A stretch of DNA of 64,000 nucleotides from assembly GCA_964447765.1 (NCBI GenBank), contig CAYUTO010000001.1, positions 205,870-269,869 of the forward strand, read 5' to 3'. Below the pieces are notes generated by a model. That model did not search any database. It was not told the origin of the DNA and worked only from the letters and a program-made list of their open reading frames with translations. Both the position numbers and the translations under genes were made by a program. Below are positions 7,202 to 64,000 of the stretch, piece by piece. Positions within the stretch are counted from its first letter, which is position 1. Every line of letters starts with the position of its first letter. This stretch comes from an uncultured Gammaproteobacteria bacterium. GTDB taxonomy: Bacteria; Patescibacteriota; Patescibacteriia; Magasanikbacterales; UBA922.

Positions 7202-7259
7202 TGAGACGAACTCGTTTAAAACTAATACGTACAGTATAGCACAAAGTTTATTGCAGGAG

Positions 7260-24816: not shown

Positions 24817-24822
24817 AATTTT

Positions 24823-27935: not shown

Positions 27936-30089
27936 TTAATTTGTAGATAAAAACAACCGAACGAGCCTAATCTCATCATACGAAAATGTATCACCCAATT
28001 TTTCCTTTACCGGAGACAATGCGCTCGTACCTGCTGCATGAAATGCTTCAGTGATTCGGAGAAATCGTTCGTCTGGAATGGGCTTGAGATATGTGATGTC
28101 CGGCGCCTCACCTGCGGCAAGCAACTGTTCGATATGACTGACGATCGTCCCCACCTTTACTCCTCGACTCCGCGCAATGTCTTCCAACGGAAGTTTGGTA
28201 TCGAGTAATAGTTTGGTTTCTTGATAGGTTGAGCCTGCTCTTCGTATGGTACGTTCCCCATCGGTCCGCACACGCCCTGGGATCGGAGTTTCACTGCGTC
28301 CATGTTCCGTAGCATAGGCGACTATTGCCGAGAGGAATGCAGGGCCGAATGTCGCGAGCTTCTGCGCACCCACACCAAAAATCTCCGCAAGTGACTCACT
28401 CGACTGCGGAATGTATGCAGCCATTTCCTGTAGACTCCGGTCACCAAATACCATGAAGGGCGGAATGCCGCGCTCGTCTGCAATCTGTGATCGAAGATTT
28501 CGGAGTATCTCAAATAGTGCTTCGTCGTACGCGAACGAATCGGTCTCGTCTGATTCGGTGGTTTTAGTCTCTGCCCGCACATCAGGAAGTTCGAGGGTGT
28601 CACGATTCTCGAGCCAGGTGCGTCCTGTTTCAGTCACCGTGATTGTCTGATACATATCTCCTGATTGTAGGAGGAGCCCCTTGTTCACGAGCTGGCGCGC
28701 GATATTCCGCAGGTCTTGTTTCATAAAATTCTTGCCCACAATTCCAAATACTGACAATGTTTCATGTCCACGTTCTCGGATCACGGCAGTGCGCGATCCT
28801 TTGAGAACGTCTGCGACATAGCCGATGCCAAAACGCTGACCTGTCCTGACTACGGCCGAGATAATTTTCTGCGCAATGACCGTCGCGTCAAACGTATTCC
28901 TCGTCGTGGTACAGATATCGCAATTGGCACAGGGCTCCCCTGTCACTGTTTCTCCAAAATATCTAAGTACATATGCCCGCCGACATTCGCCCCCTTCGCA
29001 GAGATCGATCATGATTTTGAGCTTGTCCCATGCGCGTGCTTGTTCCGTTGCATCAACTATTTGTTCGATAAAAAATCCATGTTTGCGGCGGTCTCCTGAG
29101 GAATAGAGAAGGACACACTCGCTTGGCAGGCCGTCTCGACCGGCGCGTCCGGTCTCCTGATAATATCCTTCCACTGTTTTTGGCATATCAGCGTGAATTA
29201 CCAGGCGGATATCTGGCTTATCGATTCCCATACCAAATGCGATGGTTGCGACAATTATGGTGATATGGTCGCGGATAAATTTCTCCTGTGTGTCCCTCCG
29301 TACGACTGGGTCAAGACCTGCATGATAGGGCGCTGCATTGAATCCCGCAGACACGAGATCTGCTGCAATCTCCTCTGTCCCTTTTCTCGAAAAACAATAG
29401 ATGATCGTTGGTTTATCTTGATGAGTCCGGAGCAGTTTGCAGATACGTTCGAATTTGTGTTGTTTCGGTATGATTGAATAATTGAGATTGGGACGATTGA
29501 AACTTGCGACAAATTGTTTTGCTTCCCCCAGATTCAGTTGATGTACAATGTCTCCCCGCACTTTCTCGGTCGCGGTTGCGGTGAGCGCAATGACTGGCAC
29601 ATTTGGAAATACATTTCGGAGCTGGCGCAGGTTGCGGTAGTCGGGACGGAAATCATGTCCCCATTCGGAAATACAATGTGCTTCGTCAATTGCAATTAAT
29701 TTTACGGGAATCGTTTGGAGGAATTTCCGAAATTCAGGCACCGCAAAACGCTCGGGTGCGATATAGATGAGTTTTGCTTCGTTGTTTTTTATTTTCTGAA
29801 ATGCGACTTCTCGCTCTGCTGAAGTGAGCGAACTATTGAGAGACACTGCCGTGATCCCATTTTCCGCAAGCCCGTCGATCTGATCTTTCATGAGCGCGAT
29901 CAGGGGAGAAATCACGAGGGTTATACCAACTTGTGCCACTGCCGGCAATTGATAGCAGAGTGACTTTCCTCCACCTGTCGGCATAAGCACCAAACAATCT
30001 TTGCCCCCGAGTACCGTTTCAATGATTTCCTGCTGGAGCGGACGGAATTCGTCGTAGCCAAAATGTTTTTTGAGGAGGGTGTGGATCAT
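27936..30089 (-). CDS. recQ: ATP-dependent DNA helicase RecQ
   Basis: The N-terminus FGYDEFRPLQQEIIETVLGGKDCLVLMPTGGGKSLCYQLPA is present. The motif DEAHCISEWGHDFR and the zinc-finger cysteines are present. An HRDC-like region is present. Length is 717 aa. Confidence 0.9.
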   Translation of the reverse strand: MIHTLLKKHFGYDEFRPLQQEIIETVLGGKDCLVLMPTGGGKSLCYQLPAVAQVGITLVISPLIALMKDQIDGLAENGITAVSLNSSLTSAEREVAFQKIKNNEAKLIYIAPERFAVPEFRKFLQTIPVKLIAIDEAHCISEWGHDFRPDYRNLRQLRNVFPNVPVIALTATATEKVRGDIVHQLNLGEAKQFVASFNRPNLNYSIIPKQHKFERICKLLRTHQDKPTIIYCFSRKGTEEIAADLVSAGFNAAPYHAGLDPVVRRDTQEKFIRDHITIIVATIAFGMGIDKPDIRLVIHADMPKTVEGYYQETGRAGRDGLPSECVLLYSSGDRRKHGFFIEQIVDATEQARAWDKLKIMIDLCEGGECRRAYVLRYFGETVTGEPCANCDICTTTRNTFDATVIAQKIISAVVRTGQRFGIGYVADVLKGSRTAVIRERGHETLSVFGIVGKNFMKQDLRNIARQLVNKGLLLQSGDMYQTITVTETGRTWLENRDTLELPDVRAETKTTESDETDSFAYDEALFEILRNLRSQIADERGIPPFMVFGDRSLQEMAAYIPQSSESLAEIFGVGAQKLATFGPAFLSAIVAYATEHGRSETPIPGRVRTDGERTIRRAGSTYQETKLLLDTKLPLEDIARSRGVKVGTIVSHIEQLLAAGEAPDITYLKPIPDERFLRITEAFHAAGTSALSPVKEKLGDTFSYDEIRLVRLFLSTN

Positions 30090-38778: not shown

Positions 38779-38808
38779 ATGTTTGAAGTAAGATTAATTT
38801 CTGACGTG

Positions 38809-38895
38809 CGGAAGGTGAGAGATTCGAACTCTCGATACCCTTTCGGATATACCGCCTTTCCAAGGCGGCGCACTCGGCCACTATGCGAACCTTCC
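38809..38895 (-). tRNA. tRNA-Ser (anticodon GGA)
   Basis: A manual fold of the reverse complement gives a 7 bp acceptor stem (GGAAGGU/ACCUUCC). The anticodon stem CCGCC/GGCGG closes the loop UUGGAAA. A long variable arm is present. The T-arm is GAGAG-UUCGAAU-CUCUC and the discriminator is G. CCA is not encoded. Confidence 0.8.
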
Positions 38896-45661: not shown

Positions 45662-46102
45662 TTACTGACCGATCATTCCTGATGGTGAAGCAGTAAGTGC
45701 TCCTGCTGCGAATCCACCTGCTCCTGCCTGAAGTGATGCAGTGATTGTATAGGTAGTCGTGCTTCCAGTATAACTATAGAATTCTCCTGCAGTCGGACCT
45801 TCTGGTACGAGACCCATGTATGGAGTTGCGCAACCAGTAGTACTAAATCCGGTCGCATTCAAACATGAGTAGTTTGTGTCTCCCAAATTAACTGCTGATG
45901 CAGCAATAGGGTAAGAATTTTGATCCGTGTAGTAAAGTTCGAGAGCTGTCTGGATCTGCTTGATATCTGACAAACGTTTTGCATCATTTGCCTTCTGTCG
46001 AGCTGAACCAAGCGCAACTACTGCGAGTGTTGAAAGTAAACCAATAATTGCGATTACAACGAGTAATTCAATCAAGGTAAAACCTTTTCTATTTTTGTTC
46101 AT
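45662..46102 (-). CDS. Type IV pilin / pseudopilin (prepilin-type N-terminal methylation motif)
   Basis: The sequence KGFTLIELLVVIAIIGLLSTLAV matches the class III signal peptide with GFTLIE. Confidence 0.8.
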   Translation of the reverse strand: MNKNRKGFTLIELLVVIAIIGLLSTLAVVALGSARQKANDAKRLSDIKQIQTALELYYTDQNSYPIAASAVNLGDTNYSCLNATGFSTTGCATPYMGLVPEGPTAGEFYSYTGSTTTYTITASLQAGAGGFAAGALTASPSGMIGQ

Positions 46103-50293: not shown

Positions 50294-50782
50294 CTTAATA
50301 GAACACGGATTGGACGGAATTTAACTAATTTGAACGGAATTTTTAAATTTATTTTCAAATACTTTTCTTTTAAATTGCGGTTTTATACCAAAATTAAATA
50401 AAAAACCAACCTCAATTTCGGTTGCTCTTAGATAATTAATAAGTTGTGCCTCATGTTCCTCTCGAAGACCTTCCGTTGCCTTAAGTTCAATAATTATTTT
50501 ATTCTCCACTATAATATCTGCAAAATATTCACCTACAAGTATTTTTAAATCATAGACTTTTATCGGGACTTGTCTAATACCTCTGATTCTTAATCGTTGT
50601 AACTCAAACACCAATGCATTTTCATACACTTTTTCTAAAAACCCGTATCCAAGCCTATTATATACATTATAGTAGGCTTTGATGATTGTATGCCCCAATT
50701 CCCCCTCCAACATACAATGTATTAATTCGTCTTGATTCCGTCCAATTCTGTGAAATCCGTGTTCTATTAAATCAAACAACAA
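50294..50782 (-). mobile_element. Putative small mobile cassette: a GxxExxY (PD-(D/E)XK fold) gene flanked by ~45 bp terminal inverted repeats
   Basis: The right TIR at 50294-50342 and the left TIR at 50734-50770 (reverse complement) share TTAATAGAACACGGATT...GGACGGAAT. A third copy lies at 12312-12359. The TIRs overlap the first and last codons of the gene. The gene start overlaps the leuS stop by 11 nt. Confidence 0.35.
50321..50782 (-). CDS. GxxExxY family protein (PD-(D/E)XK nuclease-like)
   Basis: The GxxExxY signature is visible in YGFLEKVYENALVFEL. Length is 153 aa. Confidence 0.8.
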   Translation of the reverse strand: MLFDLIEHGFHRIGRNQDELIHCMLEGELGHTIIKAYYNVYNRLGYGFLEKVYENALVFELQRLRIRGIRQVPIKVYDLKILVGEYFADIIVENKIIIELKATEGLREEHEAQLINYLRATEIEVGFLFNFGIKPQFKRKVFENKFKNSVQIS

Positions 50783-53606
50783 TATTCAATATCTTCCCCG
50801 GCACGTAGATTATTTTTTTCGGTTTTTTATCTTCGATCCATTTTGATATTTGTTCTTGTTCATGAACCGCTTTCATCGCGACTTCTTCTCCTGCATCCGG
50901 AGCAATCTCGATCATGCCTCTCATTTTTCCATTTACCTGTACTGCGAGTGTAATCACCTCTTCCTTGAGTTTCGACTCATCGTATTCGGGCCAATCTGCC
51001 TGATGAATACTTCCCTCTCCTTGGAATATACTATGGTACAGCTCCTCAGTGAGATGTACTGCAAAAGGTGCTAGTATTCGATTAAATCTTTCAAGGACAG
51101 ATTTTTGAATTTTATCAGCCTTGGTCAATTCATTCACCGTAATCATCATCTCTGAGACTGACGTATTGAATTGAAATGCAGAAATATCATTCGTCACTTT
51201 CTTAATCGTCTTATTGATCAATTTTTCCTGAGACTCAATCACCACATCCACTAATTCTTTTTCATATAATCTGATATAGCGCTGAAGGAATTTGTATACA
51301 CCCTCAACCCCATTCGTATTCCACGCAGCAGATTGGGTAAATGGGCCAATAAACATTTCATACATTCGGAAACTATCTGCACCATATTTTTCAATCACAT
51401 CATCTGGATTGATCACATTATTCCATCGCTTACTCATCTTACGACCATCTTCTGCCATGATAAGCCCTACGTTAATCAGTTTGTGAAATGGCTCATCAGT
51501 TGAGACAACACCTTGATCAAACAAAAATTTGTGCCAGAATCGAGCATATATCAGGTGACGAGTTGCATGTTCAGTTCCACCTACATACAAATCTACCCCA
51601 TTCTCCCCCATCCAATATTTTTCTTTTGCTGGATCAACTAATTTTTTGGTATTCTTTGGATCAATGTAGCGCAAATAATACCAACTACTTCCTGCCCACT
51701 GTGGCATCGTATTTGTCTCCCGTTTTCCACCTGGTACATTCACCCAACTTTCAATTGACGCTAAGGGTGATTCGCCAGTGCCCGTAGGTTCATAATGTTC
51801 TACTTGAGGGAGTTCTACTGGAAGTTCTTTATCTCCGACAACTTCAATAGATCCGTCTTCTTTGTGAATAAAAGGGAAAGGCTCACCCCAATAACGCTGT
51901 CTCGCAAATACCCAATCACGAAGTTTATACTGCACCTTTCGCTTTCCTTTATTATTTTCTTCCAGCCATTGAATCATTTTTTCTTTAGCATCTTGGGTTG
52001 AGAGGTCATTCAAGAAATCGGAATTAATCGCAATTCCATCTTCTGATATACAGTGTTTGCTTTCCACATACCACTGCCAAAAAGTTTTATGATGGTCTAA
52101 AGTTAACATTTTTTCCACTTCATTTTTTTTCGCCCACACCACTTCATGCATTCCTTCATCTTCTTCACTCAGCTTTTCTCTTTTATTACTATGGAGCTCA
52201 ACAACATACACATGTTCAAAATCATAACAATTAACATCTTTTCTTGGCTTAAATCCGTGTCCAAAAAAGTTTGGTAGCGTAAGACCAAGAGAAAAATCTG
52301 TATATCCAGTTTCTTCTTTAATTTCACGCTCTATTGCTTCATCTACAGATTCCCCGTCCTCTATTGCTCCACCAACAAAACCACTAATATCTTGTTTCCA
52401 ATTAAGAAGTAGATATGTATCATCTTTTGGGTTATGGATAATAGCTGAGACAACATTCTTTTTTCTAACATCCTTATTCTCTCTTGGTTCGCATATACCG
52501 CTACATCGAAGATAAGGAGCAACTACTTGCTGGATTGGCAAACCAAACTTCTTCGCAAATTCATGATCACGCTCATCATGTGCAGGTACTGCCATGATTG
52601 CTCCTGTTCCATATCCCATCATCACATAATCTGCGATCCAGATCGGAAGTGATTCTCCAGTTACCGGATGAATCACCGAAAGTCCTTTTAACTCTACACC
52701 AGTTTTTTCTTTGGTAGCCTGACGATCTACATCTGTTTTTGACTTTGTTTTTTCAATATAGGATTCAACCTCATTCCAATTCTGAATTTCAGATTTCATT
52801 TCTTCTACTAATTCGTGCTCTGGCGCAACCACTACATACGTAGCACCAAACAAGGTGTCTGGACGTGTGGTGAAGACTTCAATTGTTGAATTTGAACTTT
52901 GAAATTTGAAATTTATGAGGGCTCCTTCACTTCTCCCGATCCAGTGTCTCTGCATATCTTTGATCGAGTCTTCCCAATCAAGTTTTTCTAATCCTTCGAG
53001 CAATCTATCTGCGTATTTGGTAATTTTAATAAGCCACTGACGAAGTTTTTTCTTTTCGACTACTGAGCCACAGCGTTCGCATTTTCCATCTTCTAGATCT
53101 TCAAGAGCAAGACCTGTTTTGCAGGTAGGACACCAGATGATTGGTTCATACACTTCTTCCATGAGTCCCGCTTCAAACATTCGCGCAATACACCACTGTG
53201 TCCACCGGTAATATTCTGGATCAGTCGTATTGATTTCTCGCGTCCAATCAAAATTAAAACCGATTTTTTCTAATTGCGATTTGAATACTTCAATATTTTT
53301 TTCTACAGCAACACTTGGATGCACCTTATTCTTAATTGCATAATTTTCTGCAGGTAATCCAAAAGCGTCCCATCCCATCGGATGGAGCACATTGAATCCG
53401 TTCATACGCTTGAATCGAGAATAGATGTCTGTTGCAATATAGCCTTTAGGGTGTCCTACATGCAGTCCTGCGCCACTTGGGTATGGAAACATGTCGAGAA
53501 CATAGCACTTAGGCCTGTCTGTCGTATCTTCTACTAGGTAAACACCCTTCTCTTCCCAATACTTTCTCCACTTTTCTTCTATCTTTTTCGGATTATACAT
53601 TTCCAT
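50772..53606 (-). CDS. leuS: Leucyl-tRNA synthetase with a Nudix hydrolase domain inserted after the CP1 editing domain
   Basis: The N-terminal motif PYPSGAGLHVGHPKGY (HIGH type), the editing motifs TRPDTLFGAT and AVPAHDERDHEFAKKFGLPI and the KMSKR motif are present. A Nudix box GGAIEDGESVDEAIEREIKEETGY lies at roughly aa 385-530. Confidence 0.9.
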   Translation of the reverse strand: MEMYNPKKIEEKWRKYWEEKGVYLVEDTTDRPKCYVLDMFPYPSGAGLHVGHPKGYIATDIYSRFKRMNGFNVLHPMGWDAFGLPAENYAIKNKVHPSVAVEKNIEVFKSQLEKIGFNFDWTREINTTDPEYYRWTQWCIARMFEAGLMEEVYEPIIWCPTCKTGLALEDLEDGKCERCGSVVEKKKLRQWLIKITKYADRLLEGLEKLDWEDSIKDMQRHWIGRSEGALINFKFQSSNSTIEVFTTRPDTLFGATYVVVAPEHELVEEMKSEIQNWNEVESYIEKTKSKTDVDRQATKEKTGVELKGLSVIHPVTGESLPIWIADYVMMGYGTGAIMAVPAHDERDHEFAKKFGLPIQQVVAPYLRCSGICEPRENKDVRKKNVVSAIIHNPKDDTYLLLNWKQDISGFVGGAIEDGESVDEAIEREIKEETGYTDFSLGLTLPNFFGHGFKPRKDVNCYDFEHVYVVELHSNKREKLSEEDEGMHEVVWAKKNEVEKMLTLDHHKTFWQWYVESKHCISEDGIAINSDFLNDLSTQDAKEKMIQWLEENNKGKRKVQYKLRDWVFARQRYWGEPFPFIHKEDGSIEVVGDKELPVELPQVEHYEPTGTGESPLASIESWVNVPGGKRETNTMPQWAGSSWYYLRYIDPKNTKKLVDPAKEKYWMGENGVDLYVGGTEHATRHLIYARFWHKFLFDQGVVSTDEPFHKLINVGLIMAEDGRKMSKRWNNVINPDDVIEKYGADSFRMYEMFIGPFTQSAAWNTNGVEGVYKFLQRYIRLYEKELVDVVIESQEKLINKTIKKVTNDISAFQFNTSVSEMMITVNELTKADKIQKSVLERFNRILAPFAVHLTEELYHSIFQGEGSIHQADWPEYDESKLKEEVITLAVQVNGKMRGMIEIAPDAGEEVAMKAVHEQEQISKWIEDKKPKKIIYVPGKILNIVV

Positions 53607-53663
53607 AGAAACAATACTAATGTGATTCCTATATACTAGCCCAGTCACCTATTTTCTGCAACC

Positions 53664-56600
53664 TTAAGGAGCAATCTCACCACTTGGACTATCCGAAGGA
53701 GTTGAAGATGATTCTTCAGAAGTTTCTTCACTATTATTTATTTCGTCTTGGACTTCTTGTATCAGTTGATCAATAAAACTTGGAGCTGAATCCACCGTTT
53801 CTTCTTCTGGAGGGGTCGGATCTGATTGAGGCTCAACAGGTACATCAACTTGTGGAACACTCTCTGGTTCTGGTTCTTCAACAGCTTCTTCAGAAGCAGA
53901 GGAGGAGCCTGATTCTTCAGGTACTGGACCCGGTACCATTAATTCACCCTGAAGATCACAATCACCCGGTAATTTTTCCCATTCACCATTGGCAATTCGA
54001 ATACAGTAGATTTCTCCCGTCACACTATCCGTCATTTCCATTTCTTCAGTACGAATCTTATCAAACACACCTACTACTGCAGTGACTCTCTCCGCTAGAA
54101 AATCTTTAATCACACCAGCTCCGTCTGAGAGTCTGTTTACGAGATAGGTCATAGCCGAAGCCAGCGGTCTGTTTGCAGCATAGAGGAGTTCTTCTTCTGA
54201 GAGCGTACGAGGAGTAGATGAATTTACTCCTGCAGTTGCAAGGAGAAGTCCATCGATTTGTTGTTGCTGGGATTGTACAGCTGAGATGAGAGGGATCACG
54301 AGACGAGCATAATCGACTGATCGAGGAGTGGTACTACTTGGTTCGTAGATGACGAGATGTTTGTTAACGAGATCCACTTCTTCTGCAATTAACCCTAATT
54401 CTTCTACCTCATCATGATTACGTTTATAGGTTACTGGTCGGAGTTCCAGTATGGTTGAGAGTCCATCATTCCAAGTCTCAATGTCATGTTTAAATCTTTG
54501 AGAGGAAACGGTACAGTTACCTGCTTGATGCGTGATCTTTCCTCCGGTGTCAAAACACAGATAGTCACTGGTGGCACCAGGAGCAGTGAGGCCTGGCATG
54601 TAGACCAGAGAACTTGAGACAACGAGACCACGGAGAGTAGTCGTACCAACCACGCCCAAACCTCCATCGGTGAACATGCCCCCTACACCCACATTAAGAC
54701 CACTGGTGATGTAAGCGTTGTTTCCTACCGTGAGATTCTCCGTTACTGAGATATTACTTGATTGGAGAGAACCGATGTGTGCTGAAGGGGCGTCGATACC
54801 GCCGAGGTCGATGACGGAGAGAGAATGCGAACCATAGCTTGCTACATAGGCATATTTACCAGAAATATGGATTGAAGAAATACCGTTGAGTGCAGTGGAA
54901 GAAACAACTCCACCAACAATGCTCGGTTGAGTAGGGTTCGAAATGTCGATTACACGAAGTGATGTATCTTCAGTATTCGCGACATACGCATATTTACCTG
55001 CAACCTGGATTGAACGCGCACCATTAAGTTGAGACGAAGAAATAGTACCAACAACGGTGGAAGACACAGGATTAGAGATGTCAACAACACTAACGGTGCC
55101 ACCATAACCCGCCACATACGCATATTTTCCTGAAACATACACAGAGCCTGCAGTACCTGCAACATAAGTCATGCTACTAAGAATTATAGGTGTTGTGGGA
55201 TTGGAGATATCGAGCACTGTTAACCTACCTTCATCACTCCCTGTCACATACGCGTACTTACCTGATACATACACGGCGTTAGCACCATTAAGAGCAGTGG
55301 AAGAAACAATACTACTAACAATCGTTGGGGTGGTAGGATTAGAAACGTCAACGATAGCAAAAGAATCACCAAGAAAAGAGGTCACATACGCATATTTCCC
55401 TGAAACGTAGAGGGCAACAGGAATATTCAATGCAGTAGATGACACAACACTACCAACAATACTTGGCGTGGTAGGATTAGAGATATCAACGACAGATAGA
55501 GAATTAGCGTCATAGCTTGCTACATAGGCGTATTTTCCTGCCGCATACACTGCGCGAGCGCCTTGCAGCACAGTCGATGACACAACGCCTCCGACAATAG
55601 TTGGTGATGTAGGATTAGAGATATCAACGATACGAAGGGAGTTGTCAGCAAGGTTTGCCACATATGCATACTTACCTGAAACGTACGTTGAGATCGCTGA
55701 ATTAAGCGCAGTTGATGATGCAACAAATCCTACAATTGTAGGATTACTCTTGATACTCACATCCACCGACCCAGCAGATACCAGTCCGCCAGTCGATATG
55801 CCGCCAGCTCCCACATTCAATCCATTTGAAACATATGCATTATTTGCAACCGTAAGATTATCTGTAACATTAGCCGTATTTACTTGAAGTGCACCAATAT
55901 TTGCAGAAGGCGCATCAATACCGCCAAGGTCAATAATGCGGAACGTCCCACCAGCACCATTCGCCACATACGCATATTTTCCTGATACGTAGACGGACCG
56001 TGCATCATCGAGTAATGTAACGTGCTTGACCCCTCCGACAATTACAGGATTAGTAGAGCTTGAAATATTAATAATACGAATAGAGTCATCGTCCCGAGCT
56101 GCCACATACGCATATTTTCCTGATACGTAGACGGACCGTGCACCATTAAGATTTGCAGCGTCTTTTATTCCACCAACAATACTCGGAGCAGTTGAGCTAG
56201 AGATATCAATAATACGAAGTGAATCATCACTTTCATTCGCCACATACGCATATTTTCCTGATACGTAGACGGACCATGGATCATTGAGGGCAGTTGTTGA
56301 AACTACACTCCCTACAATAGATGGAGTGGCAGGATTTGAGATGTCGATGATACGCAGTGAGTGAGTGTTTCTATCTGTTGTATACGCATATTTTCCTGAA
56401 ACATATATAGAAGATAGTCCACCAAGTGCAGTGGTGGAAACCACACTTCCAACAATACTAAGGTTGGTTGAATTTGAGATGTCGATGACTTGGAGAGAAC
56501 TATCTCCTGATACATACGCATATTTACCTGAAACATACACAGCACTAGCAGTAATCGCTGTTGAAGTTACCCTACCAACAACACTTGGAGTAGTAGGATT

Positions 56601-59600
56601 TGAAACATCGATCACATGGAGCGATTCAAATGCCGTCACATACACATTATTACCGGTAACAAATAAGTCCCCTGGTAAAAAGATCTCTGAGTCGTTTAAA
56701 CTACCAATGTTAACCGGAGTAGTAGGATTTGAAACATCGATTACATTCAACTCATCACTCCCTATACCAATCGTGTATGCATATTTACCAAAAACTTTAA
56801 CTTCTCCAGGAATACCGCCCAAACTCACACCTCCTAGAATAGATGGTTCAGCAAGAGCAGTCTGATTGAAACTACCTGCAACAAAAATATTTGATGAACT
56901 AACATTCGTACCTGATGCGTTGGTGAATGCGAGATTGCTAGTAAATAAATTAGTACTCGTGATAGATGCCCCAACTGCAATTCCAAATGAGAAATTTGTA
57001 GTAGTTGCATTGGTACCATTTAGATTAGTAAATCGCAATCCGGCTGAGAAGAAGTTCGTGCTCGTTGCATTCGTTAAGGTAGTGACTCCAAGATTCGTGA
57101 GACCAGAGACATTCAAGTTAGTTGAGGTAAGTGAAGTTCCGTTCAATCTAGTAAATGAGATATTGGTTGAAGTAACATTAGTAAGTACAGATGAGGTAAC
57201 AAATAAAAACGAAGAAGAAACATTTCCTGCAACATTTAAATTTCCATCGGTTCTCAATGTACCTGCGACAAGTCGATACAAATAAGTATCACTTCCAAAG
57301 CTCAAACCTCCAAATCTAGTGGTCGATGCAGCAAGATTAAGAATCGTTTGAGGAGAAGAGGTGCCAATACCAACAAAACGACCCCCCGTAATACGCATTG
57401 CTTCGACATTATTCATCATGAAGCTAATCGGATTACTCGCATTTGAATTAATATAATTAACACCTGCCAATACACCTCCTACACCCAAATTCGCATGACC
57501 AAATGAAAATTGGAGAGTATTAGTACTATCAAATAAATCAAACGATGTGTATCCATTGGACGCCGCATTCTGATATCTCACTAATCCAGAACCTGGAGCA
57601 TTAGCTACAACAGTCAACGCACTGCTAATCGATGTAGTACCGACACTAATATTTCCAGAAAAAGTTGTTGTTGCTAGACGAGATTGTCCGGTAGTTGTAA
57701 TCGAAGCACCATTCAACCGTACAAAAGAAATATTAGTACCCGTAAGATTTGTTCCTACTGCATTCACAAATGCGAAGCTAGCTGTTGAAGTAATGTTTTC
57801 ACCAATGAGGTTTGTAAACTGTAATCCGGCTGAAAAGAAATTTGTTGAAGTGCCATTGGTAAACGTAGTCATACCAAGATTGGTGAGACCAGACACATTT
57901 AAATTAGTAGAGGTAACATTTACCCCACTCAAGTCAGTGAAAGAAATGTTGGTCGAGGTGAGTGATGCAATACTGGCACTGCCAAATGCAAGATTACTAA
58001 AGAATGCATTCGTAGAAGTAATACTTCCAAACGTAGACGAGGTAGCAAAGAGATTAGTGGTTGTCAAGGAAGTGACACTTAATCCTCCTGCAATATATGA
58101 GGTGGAAGTTCCTGATACCGAAAGTGCGCCATCTACTTTGATTCCCCCAATTCCAACCACAAGACCGTTACCAACATAAGCATCATTAGTAACATTAAAA
58201 TTATCAGTGATATTAAGATTACTTACCTGTAATGCGCCGATATTAGCTGAAGGAGCATCGATTCCCCCAATATCGAGAATATGAAACTCATTACCACCAC
58301 TTTGATTACCCACATACGCGTATTTACCAGAGACAAAAATAGCTCGACCAGCGTCAGGAAGATTAAATCCTCCACCGATGGTATTTGGAGCAGTAGAACT
58401 TGAAATATCAATCACATAGATCTCGGCTCCAATGGCACTAGAATTGGCCAAATACGCATATTTACCTGCGACATAAATCGACTGCACCGTATCATTCGAA
58501 AAATCTTCACTCCCGACAACAGAAAGAGCCGTAGAACTTGAAATATCAATAATATGGAAATCACTGACAGGGTCTGCGGTACCATTAGTACCTACATACG
58601 CATATTTTCCAGAGACATAGATCGATTTAACGGTATTCAACAAATCAATACCCCCAGCAGTCGTAGGACTGACCGGATTAGAGATATTAATAACCTGAAG
58701 ATCATTACCCGTGGAAGAGGTAATACCAATAAACGCATATTTACCAGATACGAAGACAGCGTTGACATCAGTTGATACATCAACACCTCCCACACTGATT
58801 GGACTTACCGGATTTGAGATATCGATAATATGGAAATCATTACCGGACACTGAATTCACACCCACATATGCGTACTTACCAGAGACATAAATTGTTTGAA
58901 CACCCGTCGACAAATCAATACCACCTACTTCAATAGGATTGGTCGGATTAGAGATATCAATAACATGTAGATCACTGCCTGCGGCTGCAGTAGTACCTAC
59001 ATATGCATATTTTCCAGAGACGTACACTGAGATAGCTGCTGAAGATGCCCAGGTTATACCCCCACCAAGCTCGACAGGATTAGTAGGATCCGAAACATCA
59101 ATCACATGAAAATCAACACCGGTACTCTGAGTAACTACATATGCATATTTCCCCGATACGTGTAGTGCCCGAATTGAATCTGATAAATTAAGAGTACCTG
59201 CTTCTGTTAATGATGTATCTACTGCTTGCGTAAAATTATCTACTAAATACAGATTAGTAGACGAAACATTGGTAAATACACCTGTCGAAGGATTTGAATT
59301 ACCAATAGGAGAGTTGTTAACCGTTCCCCCATCAATCGTGAGAGAATTAGCAACCATTGGGTCAGTCACGGAGTTCGTGGGAAGTGAGAGTGCTCCCGTA
59401 ACAGCTAAATTGGTCGAAGTAATACTAGTACCATTCAATCTGGTAAATGAAATATTTGTTGAAGTGAGACTTGTGCCGTTTGCAGTACCAAATGAGAGAC
59501 TTTGTGCAAAGAAGTTTGCAGTTGAACTTGCATTGGTAAATACTGCAGTTGAAGCTCCCGTTGATCCAATCGGTGTGTTGTTAATACTTCCCCCATCGAT

Positions 59601-62063
59601 CGTGAGACCATTCACGACCATTGTGTCAGTAATTGAATTAGCGGGAAGCGTGATCGATCCCGTAACCGCGAAGTTGGTAGTGGTTGCGTTCGTCATGACC
59701 AATCCTCCGGTCATACTTCCTCCCTCAAGTCTGAGATACGATGAACTTGCTGCCATCCAGATAGGATCAGTTTCGGTGTAACTGGTCAGGTAACCTTCGA
59801 GTGCATGGTCTCCCCATTCATAGGCAGTTTGCCAATCAGTCGTTGAAGCAGCCAGCGGAATGGAGTAGCCAGGTAATACATAGGGAGTGAAGGTATGAGT
59901 GTCAGTATTAGACGTAATGAGTAATCCAATACCCGTTCCGGTACTGGTTGCAAATACTTGTGATGAAGCGCCTAACCCATTAAGTGAGGTGAGTCCCCCA
60001 CCAAATTCTCCGAGCTGATCAGTTCCACAAGAAAATTTACCAGTACTACTGTCATAGAGTAATTTACTAGATGATGCATTACTACAACTACTAAGATTAT
60101 TCTGGAAAAATCCACCGGTTACGGTCGTCGTTGCAATGCTGAGATACCCAGTACCGGTAGCATTGGTGAACGTAAGACCAGTAGTGTTAATATTGGTACT
60201 GGTAATGTTTGAAGCAGTGACATTTTCTGGATTGAATGAACTTGCACTCAATGTCGTGAAGAATCCGTTGGTACTAGTAATTGAAGTTCCATTTGCAGTA
60301 CCAAAGGTGGTTGAGAGGAAATTTGAAGTGGTGGCGAAGAGATTGGTTGTCGTGATAGAAGTTCCGACTAATGGACCACTAAGTGTGCCACCAGTTAAGA
60401 GGAGATAATTTGAAGCAGTGATCGTGTCAACAACCATAGCATCAGTGATGGAATTGTTTGGAAGAGTAACAACACCTGTTGCAAGTAAATTTGTAGTAGT
60501 TACGTTCGTTGTCGTGAAATTAGTTGAGTTTAAATTTGCAATGACTCCATTAGTTGCAATGAATGAAGTTGCAAACAAGTTGGTACTGGTTGCATTCGTG
60601 AAGATTCCTGCTGCAGGAGTGACTAATCCAATAGGAGTGTTGTTAATACTTCCCCCATCGATCGTGAGACCATTCACGACCATTGTATCAGTGATGGAGT
60701 TGGTTGGGAGAGTGATCTGACCCGTTGCATTGAAATTAGTAGTGGTAATGTTTGTTGCAACAATATTTGTTGGATTGAAGGTGGTGACTACCAGGTTTGA
60801 AAAGAATCCATTCGTTGAAGTAAGTGACGTACCGTTCGCCGTACCAAATGAGAGGTTAGTTGAGTTGAATGTTTCTGCAAATGCATTCGTCGTGGTAAGA
60901 CTCGTACCATTAGCAGTCGTGAATGAGAGAGCTGCAGTATTGAAGTTGGTAGAAGTTGCATTACCAAGAGTGGTTGCACCAAGGTTAGTTACCCCAGACA
61001 CATTCAAATTAGTTGAAGTAACATTAGTACCAAGAATATTAGTGAACGTAAGTGTGGTACCAGTTAAGGTACCAATGTTAGCGTTGGTTGAGGTAATACT
61101 GGTACCTACTGCTGTACCGAATGCAAGTGTAGTGAAGAAAGCGTTGGTTGAGGTAACACTTGAAATCGCAGTATTTCCAAGCACTGTTAAACCTGAAACA
61201 GAAAAATTTGTAGTAGTAGCGTTTATTCCATTTAGATCTGTGAATGAGAGACTCTCTGAAAAGAAATTAGTTGAAGTACCATTTGTAAAGGCAAGACCTG
61301 CGAGATTGGTATTACCAAATATTCGTAGTGTTCCAGAGGCACTCACACTGCCACCACCATTGACCAAGAATAATCCAGAAAGATCCGAGGTGGATGTAGC
61401 AATCATGAGACCCGTAGCCGTGAGTACCGAAGTATTAGTACCATTAGTTACTGAAACCGGACTAGTAAAATTAGTACTTGTCGCAGACCCACTACTCGTG
61501 TCTACCCCACACATGAATTTTCCCGTAGTTGCGTCATAGAGAAGTGTTTGCACTTCCATACTACAGTCTCCGAGTCCAGTCTGGAAGAATCCACCAGTAA
61601 CCGTTGAAGTTGTAAGTGTAGTGGTACCAGAAATCTGGACAGTAGTAGCAAAAACATTTGTACTCGTTACATTGGTAAATTCACTTGCAACAAAGGTTGT
61701 TGAACCAAAAATCTTCAATGTCCCCGAAGCACTTACATTACCACTACTATCGACAAAAAAGAGACCTGAGAGATTTGAGGTAGAGGTGGCGATATAGAGA
61801 CCATCCGCTCGTAGACTCGAAGATACTGATCCATTGGTAATGGAAATTGGAGTAGTAAAGCCAGGGCCAAGAGGAGTAACTCCACACTCAGGATCAGTCG
61901 GACCACACAGAGGATTCAGTGTTTCACCTGGACTATAGGTAATTGCATGTACGCCAAAAGGAGCGATTACGATCGCCATGAGAATAATGAAGCCGCTCAA
62001 CTGCAGAAAAATACTGTTTCTTACATTTCGAAAGTATTCGCTCTTCATGTATTTTTTTCTCAT
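53664..62063 (-). CDS. Giant secreted surface protein (~2,800 aa): signal/transmembrane N-terminus, Thr/Ser/Asn-rich fibre repeats, two blocks of LVIVD-type beta-propeller repeats, C-terminal intramolecular-chaperone (peptidase S74-like) domain
   Basis: The N-terminus has a transmembrane/signal segment (LSGFIILMAIVIAPFGVHA). Repeat units of about 11 aa have the form TSTN.F...L.F. LVIVD-type units such as YVSGKYAYVA...LRIIDISNPTxPSIVG are present. The C-terminal region reads SSQRFKHDIETW...LELRPVTYKR...IAEEVDLV...VDYARLVIPLISAVQSQQQQIDGL, with the auto-cleavage-type motif S-x4-K. An acidic tail follows. The start was chosen at ATG 62063. Confidence 0.8.
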   Translation of the reverse strand: MRKKYMKSEYFRNVRNSIFLQLSGFIILMAIVIAPFGVHAITYSPGETLNPLCGPTDPECGVTPLGPGFTTPISITNGSVSSSLRADGLYIATSTSNLSGLFFVDSSGNVSASGTLKIFGSTTFVASEFTNVTSTNVFATTVQISGTTTLTTSTVTGGFFQTGLGDCSMEVQTLLYDATTGKFMCGVDTSSGSATSTNFTSPVSVTNGTNTSVLTATGLMIATSTSDLSGLFLVNGGGSVSASGTLRIFGNTNLAGLAFTNGTSTNFFSESLSFTDLNGINATTTNFSVSGLTVLGNTAISSVTSTNAFFTTLAFGTAVGTSITSTNANIGTLTGTTLTFTNILGTNVTSTNLNVSGVTNLGATTLGNATSTNFNTAALSFTTANGTSLTTTNAFAETFNSTNLSFGTANGTSLTSTNGFFSNLVVTTFNPTNIVATNITTTNFNATGQITLPTNSITDTMVVNGLTIDGGSINNTPIGLVTPAAGIFTNATSTNLFATSFIATNGVIANLNSTNFTTTNVTTTNLLATGVVTLPNNSITDAMVVDTITASNYLLLTGGTLSGPLVGTSITTTNLFATTSNFLSTTFGTANGTSITSTNGFFTTLSASSFNPENVTASNITSTNINTTGLTFTNATGTGYLSIATTTVTGGFFQNNLSSCSNASSSKLLYDSSTGKFSCGTDQLGEFGGGLTSLNGLGASSQVFATSTGTGIGLLITSNTDTHTFTPYVLPGYSIPLAASTTDWQTAYEWGDHALEGYLTSYTETDPIWMAASSSYLRLEGGSMTGGLVMTNATTTNFAVTGSITLPANSITDTMVVNGLTIDGGSINNTPIGSTGASTAVFTNASSTANFFAQSLSFGTANGTSLTSTNISFTRLNGTSITSTNLAVTGALSLPTNSVTDPMVANSLTIDGGTVNNSPIGNSNPSTGVFTNVSSTNLYLVDNFTQAVDTSLTEAGTLNLSDSIRALHVSGKYAYVVTQSTGVDFHVIDVSDPTNPVELGGGITWASSAAISVYVSGKYAYVGTTAAAGSDLHVIDISNPTNPIEVGGIDLSTGVQTIYVSGKYAYVGVNSVSGNDFHIIDISNPVSPISVGGVDVSTDVNAVFVSGKYAFIGITSSTGNDLQVINISNPVSPTTAGGIDLLNTVKSIYVSGKYAYVGTNGTADPVSDFHIIDISSSTALSVVGSEDFSNDTVQSIYVAGKYAYLANSSAIGAEIYVIDISSSTAPNTIGGGFNLPDAGRAIFVSGKYAYVGNQSGGNEFHILDIGGIDAPSANIGALQVSNLNITDNFNVTNDAYVGNGLVVGIGGIKVDGALSVSGTSTSYIAGGLSVTSLTTTNLFATSSTFGSITSTNAFFSNLAFGSASIASLTSTNISFTDLSGVNVTSTNLNVSGLTNLGMTTFTNGTSTNFFSAGLQFTNLIGENITSTASFAFVNAVGTNLTGTNISFVRLNGASITTTGQSRLATTTFSGNISVGTTSISSALTVVANAPGSGLVRYQNAASNGYTSFDLFDSTNTLQFSFGHANLGVGGVLAGVNYINSNASNPISFMMNNVEAMRITGGRFVGIGTSSPQTILNLAASTTRFGGLSFGSDTYLYRLVAGTLRTDGNLNVAGNVSSSFLFVTSSVLTNVTSTNISFTRLNGTSLTSTNLNVSGLTNLGVTTLTNATSTNFFSAGLRFTNLNGTNATTTNFSFGIAVGASITSTNLFTSNLAFTNASGTNVSSSNIFVAGSFNQTALAEPSILGGVSLGGIPGEVKVFGKYAYTIGIGSDELNVIDVSNPTTPVNIGSLNDSEIFLPGDLFVTGNNVYVTAFESLHVIDVSNPTTPSVVGRVTSTAITASAVYVSGKYAYVSGDSSLQVIDISNSTNLSIVGSVVSTTALGGLSSIYVSGKYAYTTDRNTHSLRIIDISNPATPSIVGSVVSTTALNDPWSVYVSGKYAYVANESDDSLRIIDISSSTAPSIVGGIKDAANLNGARSVYVSGKYAYVAARDDDSIRIINISSSTNPVIVGGVKHVTLLDDARSVYVSGKYAYVANGAGGTFRIIDLGGIDAPSANIGALQVNTANVTDNLTVANNAYVSNGLNVGAGGISTGGLVSAGSVDVSIKSNPTIVGFVASSTALNSAISTYVSGKYAYVANLADNSLRIVDISNPTSPTIVGGVVSSTVLQGARAVYAAGKYAYVASYDANSLSVVDISNPTTPSIVGSVVSSTALNIPVALYVSGKYAYVTSFLGDSFAIVDVSNPTTPTIVSSIVSSTALNGANAVYVSGKYAYVTGSDEGRLTVLDISNPTTPIILSSMTYVAGTAGSVYVSGKYAYVAGYGGTVSVVDISNPVSSTVVGTISSSQLNGARSIQVAGKYAYVANTEDTSLRVIDISNPTQPSIVGGVVSSTALNGISSIHISGKYAYVASYGSHSLSVIDLGGIDAPSAHIGSLQSSNISVTENLTVGNNAYITSGLNVGVGGMFTDGGLGVVGTTTLRGLVVSSSLVYMPGLTAPGATSDYLCFDTGGKITHQAGNCTVSSQRFKHDIETWNDGLSTILELRPVTYKRNHDEVEELGLIAEEVDLVNKHLVIYEPSSTTPRSVDYARLVIPLISAVQSQQQQIDGLLLATAGVNSSTPRTLSEEELLYAANRPLASAMTYLVNRLSDGAGVIKDFLAERVTAVVGVFDKIRTEEMEMTDSVTGEIYCIRIANGEWEKLPGDCDLQGELMVPGPVPEESGSSSASEEAVEEPEPESVPQVDVPVEPQSDPTPPEEETVDSAPSFIDQLIQEVQDEINNSEETSEESSSTPSDSPSGEIAP
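55950..56300. repeat. Near-identical ~140 bp tandem coding repeats inside the giant gene (LVIVD units)
   Basis: The sequence GCCACATACGCATATTTTCCTGATACGTAGACGGACCGTGCA recurs at about 55.97, 56.11 and 56.25 kb. Confidence 0.6.
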
Positions 62064-62281
62064 AATTAAACAATTACGAAATAACCACAAGGCGACTATT
62101 CTCTGCCTTATTTTTACTAGTGGTAGTGTACCATATTTATGGCTTCACTACTATGAAAATGTGGTCGGGATTGTGGAGAACTTTAATCCGATACATACAT
62201 TCTATTTTTCCATCATTCCCCGCATTTTAATTCATATAAAAAATACCAGAATTCTCTGGTATTTTTTATATGAAACACTTT

Positions 62282-63538
62282 TTATTTCATTTTATCTACA
62301 ATCCGTTCAATTGCTCGTATGAATGCTGCTTTTCGTAATGGTACACTATACTTCTCAGACGTTTCCCATATCTCTCCAAAAGCACGGAGCATCTCTAATT
62401 CAAGCTTCTGGAGGACATCAACTTCGCCCCAATGCTCACTTGCTTTATTCTGCTGCCACTCAAAACAGCTCACCGTAACTCCCCCTGCATTTGCGAGTAC
62501 ATCTGGAACGACTACCACTCCTTTGCTATTCAAAATTTCATCCGCCTCAGGAGTTGTCGGACCATTTGCAAGTTCCACAATAGTCTTTGCCTGTACACGC
62601 GGTGCATTCAGCTCAGTAATCGCTCCTTCAAGTGCTGCAGGAACAAGAATATGGACGGAAAGTTCCAGTAATTCCTCGTTTGATATATCTTTTCCCCCTA
62701 CAAAACCTTTTACACTTCCTGTCTGTTCTTTGTGTTCATGTAATTTTTTGATGTCCAATCCTTCTTCATTATATATTCCACCTTTAGAGTCACTTGCTCC
62801 TACAATTCTAAAACCTTTAGTAGAAAGAATATCCGCCATATGACTACCTGCATTCCCAAATCCCTGAATTGCAATAGTAGTTTCACTTGGATTGAAGTTC
62901 ATTTTTTTACTCAATTCGTGAACACAATATACACCGCCCTGAGCTGTCGCGTATTCGCGCACTTCTGAGCCACCATGCTGTAATGGTTTCCCCGTAATCA
63001 TACCCGGGTCTTTTTTCCCTGAGAGATCTTCAAATTCTTCCCGCATCCACTGCATGATTTCTCCATTGGTATATACATCGGGCGCTGGAATATCAATATC
63101 AGACCCTAGATATCTCCAGAGCTGTTTCACATACCCTCGAGACAATTGTTCAAGTTCAGTTTTGGATAATTTTTTAGGATCCACTATTACACCCCCTTTT
63201 CCTCCCCCCAAAGGAAGACAAAAAGCAGCACATTTTAAAGTCAGCCAAAATGAGAGAGCTTTTACCTCGTCATACGTAACCCCGTGATGATATCGTATGC
63301 CCCCTTTATATGGCCCCAAGACATTATTGTATTGTGATCGATAGCCTGTAAATATTTTTATTTCTCCCGAATCCATGGTAACTGGAATTGAAACTTCAAT
63401 TACTCGGTCAGGATGAGATAATAGTTCAACTTTTTCAGATGACAGATTTATTACTTCTGCTGCTTTTTTTAGTTGTTCCATCGCATTTTCAAATGCACTT
63501 TTCATAATATAGATTTTTTGTTTGTGTAAAATAGTCAC
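62282..63538 (-). CDS. gdhA: Glutamate dehydrogenase (Glu/Leu/Phe/Val dehydrogenase family)
   Basis: The sequence GPYKGGIRYHHGVTYDEVKALSFWLTLKCAAFCLPLGGGKGG is the GDH signature. The NAD(P)-binding GFGNAG motif is also present. Confidence 0.9.
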   Translation of the reverse strand: MTILHKQKIYIMKSAFENAMEQLKKAAEVINLSSEKVELLSHPDRVIEVSIPVTMDSGEIKIFTGYRSQYNNVLGPYKGGIRYHHGVTYDEVKALSFWLTLKCAAFCLPLGGGKGGVIVDPKKLSKTELEQLSRGYVKQLWRYLGSDIDIPAPDVYTNGEIMQWMREEFEDLSGKKDPGMITGKPLQHGGSEVREYATAQGGVYCVHELSKKMNFNPSETTIAIQGFGNAGSHMADILSTKGFRIVGASDSKGGIYNEEGLDIKKLHEHKEQTGSVKGFVGGKDISNEELLELSVHILVPAALEGAITELNAPRVQAKTIVELANGPTTPEADEILNSKGVVVVPDVLANAGGVTVSCFEWQQNKASEHWGEVDVLQKLELEMLRAFGEIWETSEKYSVPLRKAAFIRAIERIVDKMK

Positions 63539-63541
63539 GCA

Positions 63542-64000
63542 TTATGACTGTCTCTTGAGTCTTCTAACTACGAACCATACAACAAGAGCAATCACTCCCC
63601 ATACAGGTGCAAATACAACAACTCGAATAACAATACTTACAAATTCTTTACCAAATTCTACCAATGAGCGCAAGGCCTCCTTGATTTCACCTACCAATTT
63701 CCATTCATTAGAATCATCTAGAATAGGAAGTGATGAACTATCAGAAGACAAATAAACAGTAATGGTTGAATAATCAGCGCTTTCACTGAGATATTTTATC
63801 CGACCTTCAATACTCTCGATTGACGAGCGCACATTCATCAATTCTCGTTGTACCGCCAAAATATCTTGAATCTGTGTAGCTCGCTTCATAATTTCAAGAA
63901 ATTGTGTCTCAGTGGCTCGCAGATTATTCAACTGTGCTTCCAAATCAACAAACTCTTCAGTTACATCTTGTCCGTTAATCGATTCGCTTCTAACTTCTCC
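63542..64000 (-). CDS. DUF4349-like protein (coiled-coil with a C-terminal transmembrane helix), C-terminal part only; the 5' end lies beyond the window end
   Basis: The reading frame stays open to position 64000. The C-terminal transmembrane segment reads VVVFAPVWGVIALVVWFVV. Confidence 0.45.
   Translation of the reverse strand, partial: GEVRSESINGQDVTEEFVDLEAQLNNLRATETQFLEIMKRATQIQDILAVQRELMNVRSSIESIEGRIKYLSESADYSTITVYLSSDSSSLPILDDSNEWKLVGEIKEALRSLVEFGKEFVSIVIRVVVFAPVWGVIALVVWFVVRRLKRQS

Follow-up and report, generated by a model that had tools for sequence, protein, structure and literature searches.

A giant predicted fibre protein with serial LVIVD propellers and a phage-type S74 chaperone domain in a member of the Magasanikbacteria

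Domain organisation of the giant protein

The DNA analysed here is a stretch of 64,000 nucleotides (the window) from contig CAYUTO010000001.1 of the metagenome-assembled genome (MAG) GCA_964447765.1, deposited as an uncultured Gammaproteobacteria bacterium and placed by GTDB in the Magasanikbacterales of the Patescibacteriota. Its minus strand carries a giant gene whose product begins with a predicted signal sequence, continues through Thr/Ser/Asn-rich shafts and three LVIVD β-propellers, and ends in an S74 intramolecular-chaperone domain of the kind found on phage tail fibres. Counted from a TTG, the open reading frame (ORF; 53664..62090) has 2,808 codons; its first ATG, at 62063 (MRKKYMKSEYF...), was the start used in the initial annotation and yields 2,799 amino acids (aa), confirming the giant ORF of ~2,800 aa proposed there for 53664-62063. 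Gene calls of close relatives begin at the second Met, at 62048, five codons after the first ATG. The protein has a mass of 286.8 kDa, and Thr, Ser and Asn together make up 35% of its residues. Its parts are listed below, from the N-terminus to the C-terminus.

53664..62063, minus strand: whole giant gene, 2,799 codons and a TAA stop
61944..62063, minus strand: predicted N-terminal signal sequence, aa 1-40, with a basic n-region, a 21-residue hydrophobic core and a V-H-A site
61878..61943, minus strand: N-terminal Cys-loop signature, aa 41-62, YSPGETLNPLCGPTDPECGV, a motif common to S74-ending relatives
59187..61877, minus strand: fibre region 1, aa 63-959, Thr/Ser/Asn-rich repeats with a 5-residue period
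58269..59186, minus strand: LVIVD β-propeller 1, aa 960-1265, 7 blades (Pfam, motif map)
58104..58268, minus strand: post-propeller linker 1, aa 1266-1320, beginning GGIDAPSANIGALQ... (motif map)
56808..58103, minus strand: fibre region 2, aa 1321-1752, with a non-repetitive module at aa 1480-1620, ending in VGIGTSSP
55926..56807, minus strand: LVIVD β-propeller 2, aa 1753-2046, 7 blades (Pfam, motif map)
55740..55925, minus strand: post-propeller linker 2, aa 2047-2108 (motif map)
54804..55739, minus strand: LVIVD β-propeller 3, aa 2109-2420, 7 blades
54507..54803, minus strand: linker 3 and stalk with the C2503-C2517 loop, aa 2421-2519 (motif map, alignments)
54225..54506, minus strand: S74 intramolecular-chaperone core, aa 2520-2613, with the pair S2520/K2525 and the predicted scissile bond between V2519 and S2520
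53667..54224, minus strand: post-S74 extension, aa 2614-2799, with helices, a Cys-bridged β-hairpin and an acidic, Pro-rich tail (aa 2705-2799)

An S74 chaperone domain at the C-terminus

The initial annotation had matched the C-terminus to the phage-type intramolecular chaperones through the motif SSQRFK, a proposal borne out by Pfam, by a profile of relatives and by structure prediction. Pfam Peptidase_S74 (PF13884) matched aa 2520-2568 over profile positions 1-54 of 58, scoring 29.0 bits against a curated cut-off of 22 (E 1.3e-6), and the same domain was present in all 19 C-terminal homologs. The motif occupies aa 2520-2525 and supplies the Ser-x4-Lys pair S2520/K2525; S2520, R2523 and K2525 were invariant across three alignments of relatives (motif SSxRFK), and in profile alignments the pair was in register with solved chaperones, its equivalents being S911/K916 in endoNF and S587/K592 in MYRF. 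Both the S74 register and the cleavage position were taken from PMC8326128, according to which MYRF is cut just N-terminal of its catalytic Ser. Because MYRF is cleaved immediately before this Ser, the scissile bond of the giant protein is predicted to lie between V2519 and S2520, and the predicted products are a mature chain of ~251 kDa (aa 41-2519) and a released fragment of 30.6 kDa.

When the C-terminal 318 aa were searched against the PDB as a single sequence, no match was returned, and a family profile was needed. The profile built from the C-termini of 11 relatives matched a putative tail fibre (8jov, E 1.2e-15), a long tail fibre subunit (6f45, 1.3e-13), the MYRF ICA domain (7dc3, 3.7e-9), T5 pb1 (8hqz, 3.1e-5) and phi29 gp12 (3gud, 4.2e-4). 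In an AlphaFold2 monomer model of aa 2441-2730, the predicted local distance difference test score (pLDDT) exceeded 90 over aa 2521-2610, and this core was modelled as two short helices, four strands and a long helix, in keeping with the small β 'donut', short helices and long C-terminal helix of the S74 fold. Judged from its sequence and model, the C-terminus is a genuine S74 intramolecular-chaperone domain, for which trimerisation-dependent self-cleavage is predicted by analogy.

Several marks set the subfamily apart: a disulfide loop that immediately precedes the cleavage site, SS in the place of SD, and ~185 residues beyond the S74 core. Within the latter, after the S74 helices, lies the Cys-bridged β-hairpin (aa 2675-2702, window 53958-54041), modelled with a pLDDT of 78-90. 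Similar post-S74 Cys hairpins occur in four further S74 proteins of Patescibacteria-type MAGs (P0020, P0042, P0045 and P0059), and the phage chaperones compared showed no counterpart.

Propellers, shafts and N-terminus

Pfam LVIVD (PF08309) matched the giant protein in 20 stretches (E 7.7e-140), and motif mapping resolved 21 blades in three blocks of exactly seven, so that the LVIVD-like repeats described initially are confirmed and their two blocks become three. The protein also scored 133 bits, over a cut-off of 100, against the NCBIfam LVIVD propeller family TIGR04312, 'choice-of-anchor B'. Each propeller is followed by the motif GGIDAPSA[NH]IG[AS]LQ and then by a linker, about 55 aa long, that was conserved in 25 aligned relatives. 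An AlphaFold2 model of aa 2085-2475, computed from an alignment of 24 related propeller segments, had a mean pLDDT of 88 and a predicted template modelling score of 0.80, and its 28 strands formed seven four-stranded blades; the LVIVD repeats are thus modelled as a closed, multi-bladed propeller.

The repeat length of ~11 aa first assigned to the Thr/Ser/Asn-rich regions proved wrong. Autocorrelation of hydrophobicity and of residue identity along the shaft peaked at 5, 10, 15, 20 and 25 residues and TSTN motifs were spaced by 15, 20, 21 or 25 aa, indicating a period of 5 residues with super-repeats of 15, 20 and 25. Fibre region 1 holds two ATSTSxLSGLF modules and two Cys modules (C167/C185 and C660/C679), and four ITLPxNSITDxMV and two YLxLxGGxxxGxL motifs are also assigned to it. 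Despite the short period, no pentapeptide family in Pfam matched the giant protein, and scores against the NCBIfam pentapeptide models fell far below their cut-offs (penta_Alr5209, 25.7 bits against 125; HetL, 16.2 against 260); designed pentapeptide solenoids gave a weak PDB match (E 0.09). Searches of the PDB with the stalk, the shaft and the 'IGTSSP' module returned no useful match, and hits to sodium/calcium exchangers were discarded as chance, due to GTS.P.

At the N-terminus, the signal or transmembrane segment noted in the initial annotation corresponds to the sole hydrophobic segment of the protein, aa 14-45. By a heuristic call, the signal is probably cleaved between VHA40 and ITYSPGETL, and an Ala-x-Ala-type site stands immediately before the conserved YxPGETL motif in 10 relatives. 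The full Cys-loop motif, YxPGETLxPxCxP..C, is common to 10 S74-ended proteins of 523-2,548 aa from Patescibacteria-type MAGs and directly follows the signal site in all of them. The ten Cys of the giant protein form five close pairs (53/60, 167/185, 660/679, 2503/2517 and 2687/2702), the pattern expected of an exported, disulfide-bonded protein. A local phmmer search found the modules of fibre region 1 again within other Magasanikbacteria giant proteins, and the ~150 aa that follow the Cys loop likewise recur as internal modules of other giant proteins. A dedicated N-terminal anchor domain in the first ~300 aa had been considered and was dropped, since its modules recur in this way.

Mosaic relationship to close relatives

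The closest relative, P0001, is a protein of 2,171 aa with two propellers, encoded in the Ca. Magasanikbacteria MAG GCA_018061425.1 and named 'tail fiber domain-containing protein' by NCBI. The two proteins share their LVIVD and S74 Pfam content and their flanking genes, and they are 85% identical over the N-terminal 313 aa and 95% identical over the C-terminal 1,090 aa; they differ in the central region, where P0001 carries another, non-collinear cassette. At the DNA level, the window was 85% identical to the P0001 locus over 61084-63988 and 93% identical over 52516-56936, and the intervening 4,147 bp (56937-61083) stood opposite an unrelated segment of 2,278 bp. The replaced DNA comprises most of fibre region 1 (shaft 1), propeller 1 and nearly all of shaft 2.

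Recent recombination between lineages is indicated within the conserved part. A block of ~900 bp in propellers 2-3 (aa ~1955-2254) was 98-99.7% identical to P0001, compared with 86-93% around it, and the synonymous divergence (dS) was 0.12 for aa 1710-2440, 0.58 for the N-terminus and stalk, and 0.33-0.65 for the flanking genes. Ratios of nonsynonymous to synonymous divergence (dN/dS) against P0001 ranged from 0.03 to 0.24 in the conserved parts, with the S74 part lowest in the gene at 0.03, and from 0.06 to 0.13 in gdh, leuS and comEC; the values within the giant gene point to purifying selection and to a functional chromosomal gene.

A third relative, P0002, has three diverged propellers and almost no shaft in 1,616 aa; its N-terminus is 94% identical over 111 aa and its S74 region 91% identical to the giant protein. 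The giant protein is a mosaic, with N- and C-terminal parts conserved relative to P0001 and the middle swapped, and in the wider family the N-terminal motif and S74 end are common while payloads differ.

Genomic context

The giant gene sits between gdh and leuS. The gene order DUF4349, gdh, giant gene, leuS, PD-(D/E)XK gene, comEC and metallo-β-lactamase (MBL)-fold gene is identical in GCA_018061425.1, and the downstream genes match in a second MAG (L083); a matching order was found only among close Magasanikbacteria relatives. A Pfam scan of the neighbouring and larger ORFs of the window detected no virion, terminase or integrase families. Because its flanks are housekeeping genes, its order is kept in two other MAGs and the scanned ORFs include no phage-virion family, the giant gene is chromosomal and cellular and not part of a prophage, as the initial annotation held. 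Neither template repeats like those of diversity-generating retroelements nor paralogs of the giant gene were found elsewhere in the window. Of the sequences looked up as exact matches, the giant protein (from either start codon), P0002 and the MBL-fold neighbour had no record, and comEC was present on a Logan contig of 3.2 kb.

A single further feature lies between gdh and the giant gene.

62231..62274, no strand assigned: perfect 20-bp palindromic hairpin with flanking T/A runs, terminator-like

Since this hairpin resembles a terminator, and could work as one in both directions, the giant gene is probably transcribed from a start of its own. Downstream, the GTG start of leuS lies 15 nt beyond the stop codon of the giant gene, and the two are probably co-transcribed. 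The leuS gene (50775-53648, minus strand) itself carries an in-frame NUDIX hydrolase domain of ~128 aa (insert ~52051-52515, aa ~379-531) right after the editing domain, with a complete Nudix box, GAIEDGESVDEAIEREIKEETG; the insert is missing from the leuS orthologs in L002 (830 aa, 92% identical) and L083.

Elsewhere in the window, the minus strand at 20397-27771 carries a restriction-modification or defence-like cluster, consisting of a fusion of a ResIII/SWI2-SNF2 helicase with a TnsA-like endonuclease (943 aa), an N6/N4 DNA methylase (535 aa) and a SNF2 helicase (982 aa). The recQ gene (27939-30089, minus strand) coincides with a local rise in G+C to 0.50, from ~0.40 in the window as a whole, a possible sign of foreign origin. 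A TrwB/TraG-like type IV secretion coupling protein of 702 aa is encoded at 5139-7244 (minus strand), consistent with the type IV secretion systems reported in Patescibacteria (PMC12102498). Nearly all gene-like ORFs of at least 120 aa are on the minus strand, GC skew is negative across the window except within the giant gene (~0 to +0.14), and the only tRNA gene is Ser-GGA at 38808-38895.

Distribution of related proteins

Scanning one genome per species across 185,579 species with the pattern C[TSG][VA]SS.RFK identified 35 confirmed loci with a Cys loop and an SSxRFK S74 end, in genes of 490-3,795 aa. Thirty of these are titled as Patescibacteria lineages (Magasanikbacteria, Saccharibacteria, Paceibacteria, Parcubacteria, Taylorbacteria and Levybacteria); the other five bear the title 'uncultured Gammaproteobacteria' and come from co-assembly bins, and we suspect that these titles are mislabelled. 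LVIVD blades were present at nine of the 35 loci; untruncated genes had 7, 14, 21 or 28 of them, and two genes that run off the end of a contig had 4 and 11.

We also searched 1.84 billion cluster representatives exhaustively, with a query that ran from the last blade through the linker and stalk to the S74 core; 11,752 proteins matched at E <= 1e-3, and 137 reached E <= 1e-30. About 15 of the top 150 matches extended as a single stretch across the whole junction from propeller to S74 domain, and many more covered blade and linker only. Our search for literature linking LVIVD, S74 or tail fibres with Patescibacteria or the Candidate Phyla Radiation (CPR) found no description of this fibre family.

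As a tentative proposal, Patescibacteria of several classes might share one fibre family, built from a signal peptide, a YxPGETLxPxC Cys-loop head, swappable payloads, among them propellers in seven-blade units, and a cap formed by a Cys loop and an SSxRFK S74 domain. Its members would determine the host cell of each episymbiont, and patchy recombination of propeller cassettes between strains would shift host range, as swaps of tail fibres do in phages.

Proposed function and alternative explanations

We favour, with moderate confidence, the interpretation that the giant protein is a secreted cell-surface fibre that belongs to the bacterium itself, follows the plan of phage receptor-binding fibres and makes contact with another cell or surface. 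This interpretation draws on the analogy with the mosaic adhesive trimer (MAT) family of Bdellovibrio, and by the same analogy a role as an adhesin in host attachment is plausible. In the mechanism that we infer, Sec would export the unfolded chain through the N-terminal signal, with a probable cut after VHA40. The C-terminal S74 domains of three chains, being the last to emerge, would associate and nucleate folding of the stalk from its C- to its N-terminus. Once the trimer has formed, S2520/K2525 would cut the bond between V2519 and S2520, freeing the 30.6 kDa chaperone fragment, which would include the post-S74 extension, and leaving the ~251 kDa chain. In the mature fibre, which would be retained at the surface, β-rich Thr/Ser/Asn-rich shafts would alternate with three tiers of seven-bladed LVIVD propellers, the likely ligand-binding units, and the disulfide-bridged loop C2503-C2517 of the stalk would become the distal, C-terminal tip. 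The partner of such a fibre would most likely be a second cell or a surface, probably the host on which this bacterium presumably depends.

Several observations weigh against this interpretation. A Foldseek search of the C-terminal model against the PDB gave nothing significant (best E 0.76). In the monomer models, the stalk (aa 2441-2500) was disordered and the linkers were disordered or of low confidence, and the 5-residue period, together with the weak pentapeptide matches, would also allow a shaft that is a monomeric β-solenoid. We found no anchoring device in the giant protein, neither an LPXTG motif nor a second transmembrane segment, and if the signal peptide is cleaved the protein could simply be released. 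Unlike in phage fibres and MATs, conservation between the two closest strains is stronger in the C-terminal half, and it is the middle that has been swapped. Finally, to our knowledge, the lifestyle of the Magasanikbacteria is not known from culture.

Among the alternatives, the one that survives best, although we regard it as unlikely, is that the protein is a structural envelope or S-layer-type coat protein, whose propellers and shafts would build or decorate the cell's own envelope without recognising a partner cell. The first LVIVD/YVTN propellers to be described came from cell-surface proteins of archaea and bacteria (PMC2447325), and a chromosomal gene with conserved neighbours, purifying selection and probable co-transcription with leuS would suit such a role. 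A swap of the middle 4.1 kb is, however, not expected of a coat protein when the products of the flanking genes are 92% identical between the strains, nor is a propeller number that varies from one to four among relatives, and the characterised S74-capped proteins found here are elongated binding fibres or spikes, or MYRF, with no lattice former among them.

It is still less probable that the protein is a secreted enzyme of the tailspike type, a depolymerase or lyase whose catalytic propellers degrade polymers on the host surface. Many S74-capped phage proteins are depolymerases, endosialidase for example, and one homolog of the giant protein is labelled 'beta-propeller fold lactonase family protein'. 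The matches that point the same way, to SBP56, methanethiol oxidase (MtoX) and 6-phosphogluconolactonase, are weak, however, with scores far under their cut-offs (24.9 bits against 34, 17.9 against 650 and 14.4 against 370, respectively), and no conserved catalytic motif was identified.

The surroundings of the gene raise a further alternative, which we consider quite improbable, that it encodes an accessory or tip protein of the adjacent type IV pilus and competence system, acting in DNA uptake or host contact. Genes for pilD, a pilin, a response regulator, pilM and comEC do lie 3.4-9 kb downstream on the same strand, much as the initial annotation stated, and type IV pili mediate host binding in Saccharibacteria according to the account given in PMC12206443. 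The connection with these genes amounts to proximity, however: leuS and the PD-(D/E)XK nuclease gene intervene, co-orientation is uninformative where nearly all genes share one strand, and most related fibre loci lack every neighbour searched for (gdh, leuS, comEC, DUF4349 and pilM). Nor does the giant protein carry a class III prepilin signal; it has no Pfam N_methyl match, of the kind carried by the true pilin at 45665-46102, and the residues after Gly24 are FIILM, with Met, not Glu, at +5. In two Taylorbacteria loci (L096, 1873-3024; L111, 1741-2928), comEC lies ~6-7 kb upstream of an S74-fibre gene, a proximity that could be cited for a pilus link and that may be a coincidence or a weak recurring association.

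An origin as a tail fibre of a phage or prophage, or as part of a phage-tail-like particle, that sits in the chromosome by chance is largely refuted, and we give it very little weight. In its favour are the S74 domain, a match to PHROG phrog_22523 over the LVIVD region (1.4e-37), the NCBI name of the ortholog, and at least 309 stretches of viral contigs that encode S74 relatives with the same GLIAEEV core, at 28-63% identity in the 80 best loci, mostly 30-45%. None of these 80 loci, however, contained LVIVD blades; the giant gene is flanked by gdh, leuS, comEC and pilM in an order repeated in two other MAGs, virion, terminase and integrase families were absent from the ORFs of the 64-kb window that were scanned against Pfam, and the product carries a predicted N-terminal signal and ten Cys in five pairs.

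Least probable of all is an assembly artefact of the MAG, through repeat collapse or a chimeric join, the possibility by which the initial annotation had allowed itself to be overturned: the gene is very rich in repeats, a large protein collection does not contain the exact protein, and its length differs from those of its relatives (2,799 aa against 2,171 and 1,616 aa), but its internal repeat copies, at 60-81% DNA identity, are too diverged for collapse, the frame is uninterrupted over 8.4 kb with dN/dS of 0.03-0.24, the blade numbers are exact multiples of seven with intact linkers, and both junctions are collinear with an independent MAG.

The interpretation as a contact fibre would make the giant gene a concrete, testable candidate for host recognition and attachment in the ultra-small Patescibacteria, a process of which little is understood apart from the type IV pili and a few adhesins of cultured Saccharibacteria (PMC10633639, PMC12206443). 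With its predicted self-cleaving cap, the fibre lends itself to a maturation assay in E. coli that uses a simple band shift and mutants with the Ser or Lys changed to Ala, and the propeller cassettes could be used as baits for host ligands. Further members of the family can be mined with the N-terminal YxPGETLxPxC, post-propeller GGIDAPSA linker and C..SSxRFK end signatures.

Comparison with known systems

The closest known system is the S74 subgroup of the Bdellovibrio MAT fibres, for example Bd3182, although membership of the giant protein in that family is not established. Caulton et al. (2024; PMC10769870) described 21 MAT surface fibres, 13 of them S74-ended, with a signal peptide and a conserved, β-rich N-domain of ~130 aa that follows it and has no PDB homolog; self-cleavage at the catalytic Ser, surface display and binding of prey glycans were demonstrated. 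The MAT fibre is a trimeric β-helix or β-prism throughout, with one end conserved to keep it on the cell and the distal end diversified. Like the giant protein, MATs are encoded by chromosomal genes of bacteria that live on other bacteria (presumed for the organism studied here), combine a signal peptide (a heuristic call here) with a long β-rich fibre and a C-terminal S74 domain with Ser-x4-Lys, and form modular mosaic families for which recognition of partner cells is proposed. The giant protein is ~3 times as long as Bd3182, in which the C-terminal region that was crystallised extends to residue 922, and has three serial LVIVD propellers within the fibre, where none are reported in MATs. 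Its motif is SSxRFK after a disulfide loop in contrast to the SDxxxK of MATs, its N-terminal signature is a 20-residue Cys loop, and its strain-variable part is the middle and not the tip. The table of MAT-like proteins in PMC10769870 contains neither Patescibacteria nor propellers.

Other systems share single components. The phage chaperones of K1F endosialidase (3GW6), T5 pb1 (4UW8, 8HQZ) and phi29 gp12 (3GUD) have PF13884, the same Ser/Lys spacing and the same position at the extreme C-terminus; they lack the ~185 extra residues of helices, Cys hairpin and acidic tail, their sequence identity to the giant protein is low, and phage fibres are assembled in the cytoplasm onto a virion whereas the giant protein is cellular and predicted to be secreted by Sec. 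The ICA domain of MYRF (7DC3), a eukaryotic membrane-bound transcription factor, is likewise a non-viral, self-cleaving trimerisation domain, but it releases a transcription factor from the membrane of the endoplasmic reticulum and is associated with neither fibre nor propellers. The LVIVD/YVTN surface proteins (Adindla et al. 2004, PMC2447325; TIGR04312; 1L0Q) are secreted and have seven-bladed LVIVD propellers; they carry C-terminal sorting or anchor signals and no S74 domain, whereas the giant protein bears its propellers along the fibre, each with a conserved linker.

The giant protein is therefore less unprecedented than the initial annotation implied, since S74-ended fibres that recognise prey were described in Bdellovibrio in 2024 (PMC10769870). 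The combination of domains is already present in public annotation, and the advance is incremental and not a new kind of system. Its notable features are its size, its serial propeller cassettes and the lineage that encodes it, and a contact fibre of this design would extend the principle of the MAT fibres to a very different, small-genome lineage.

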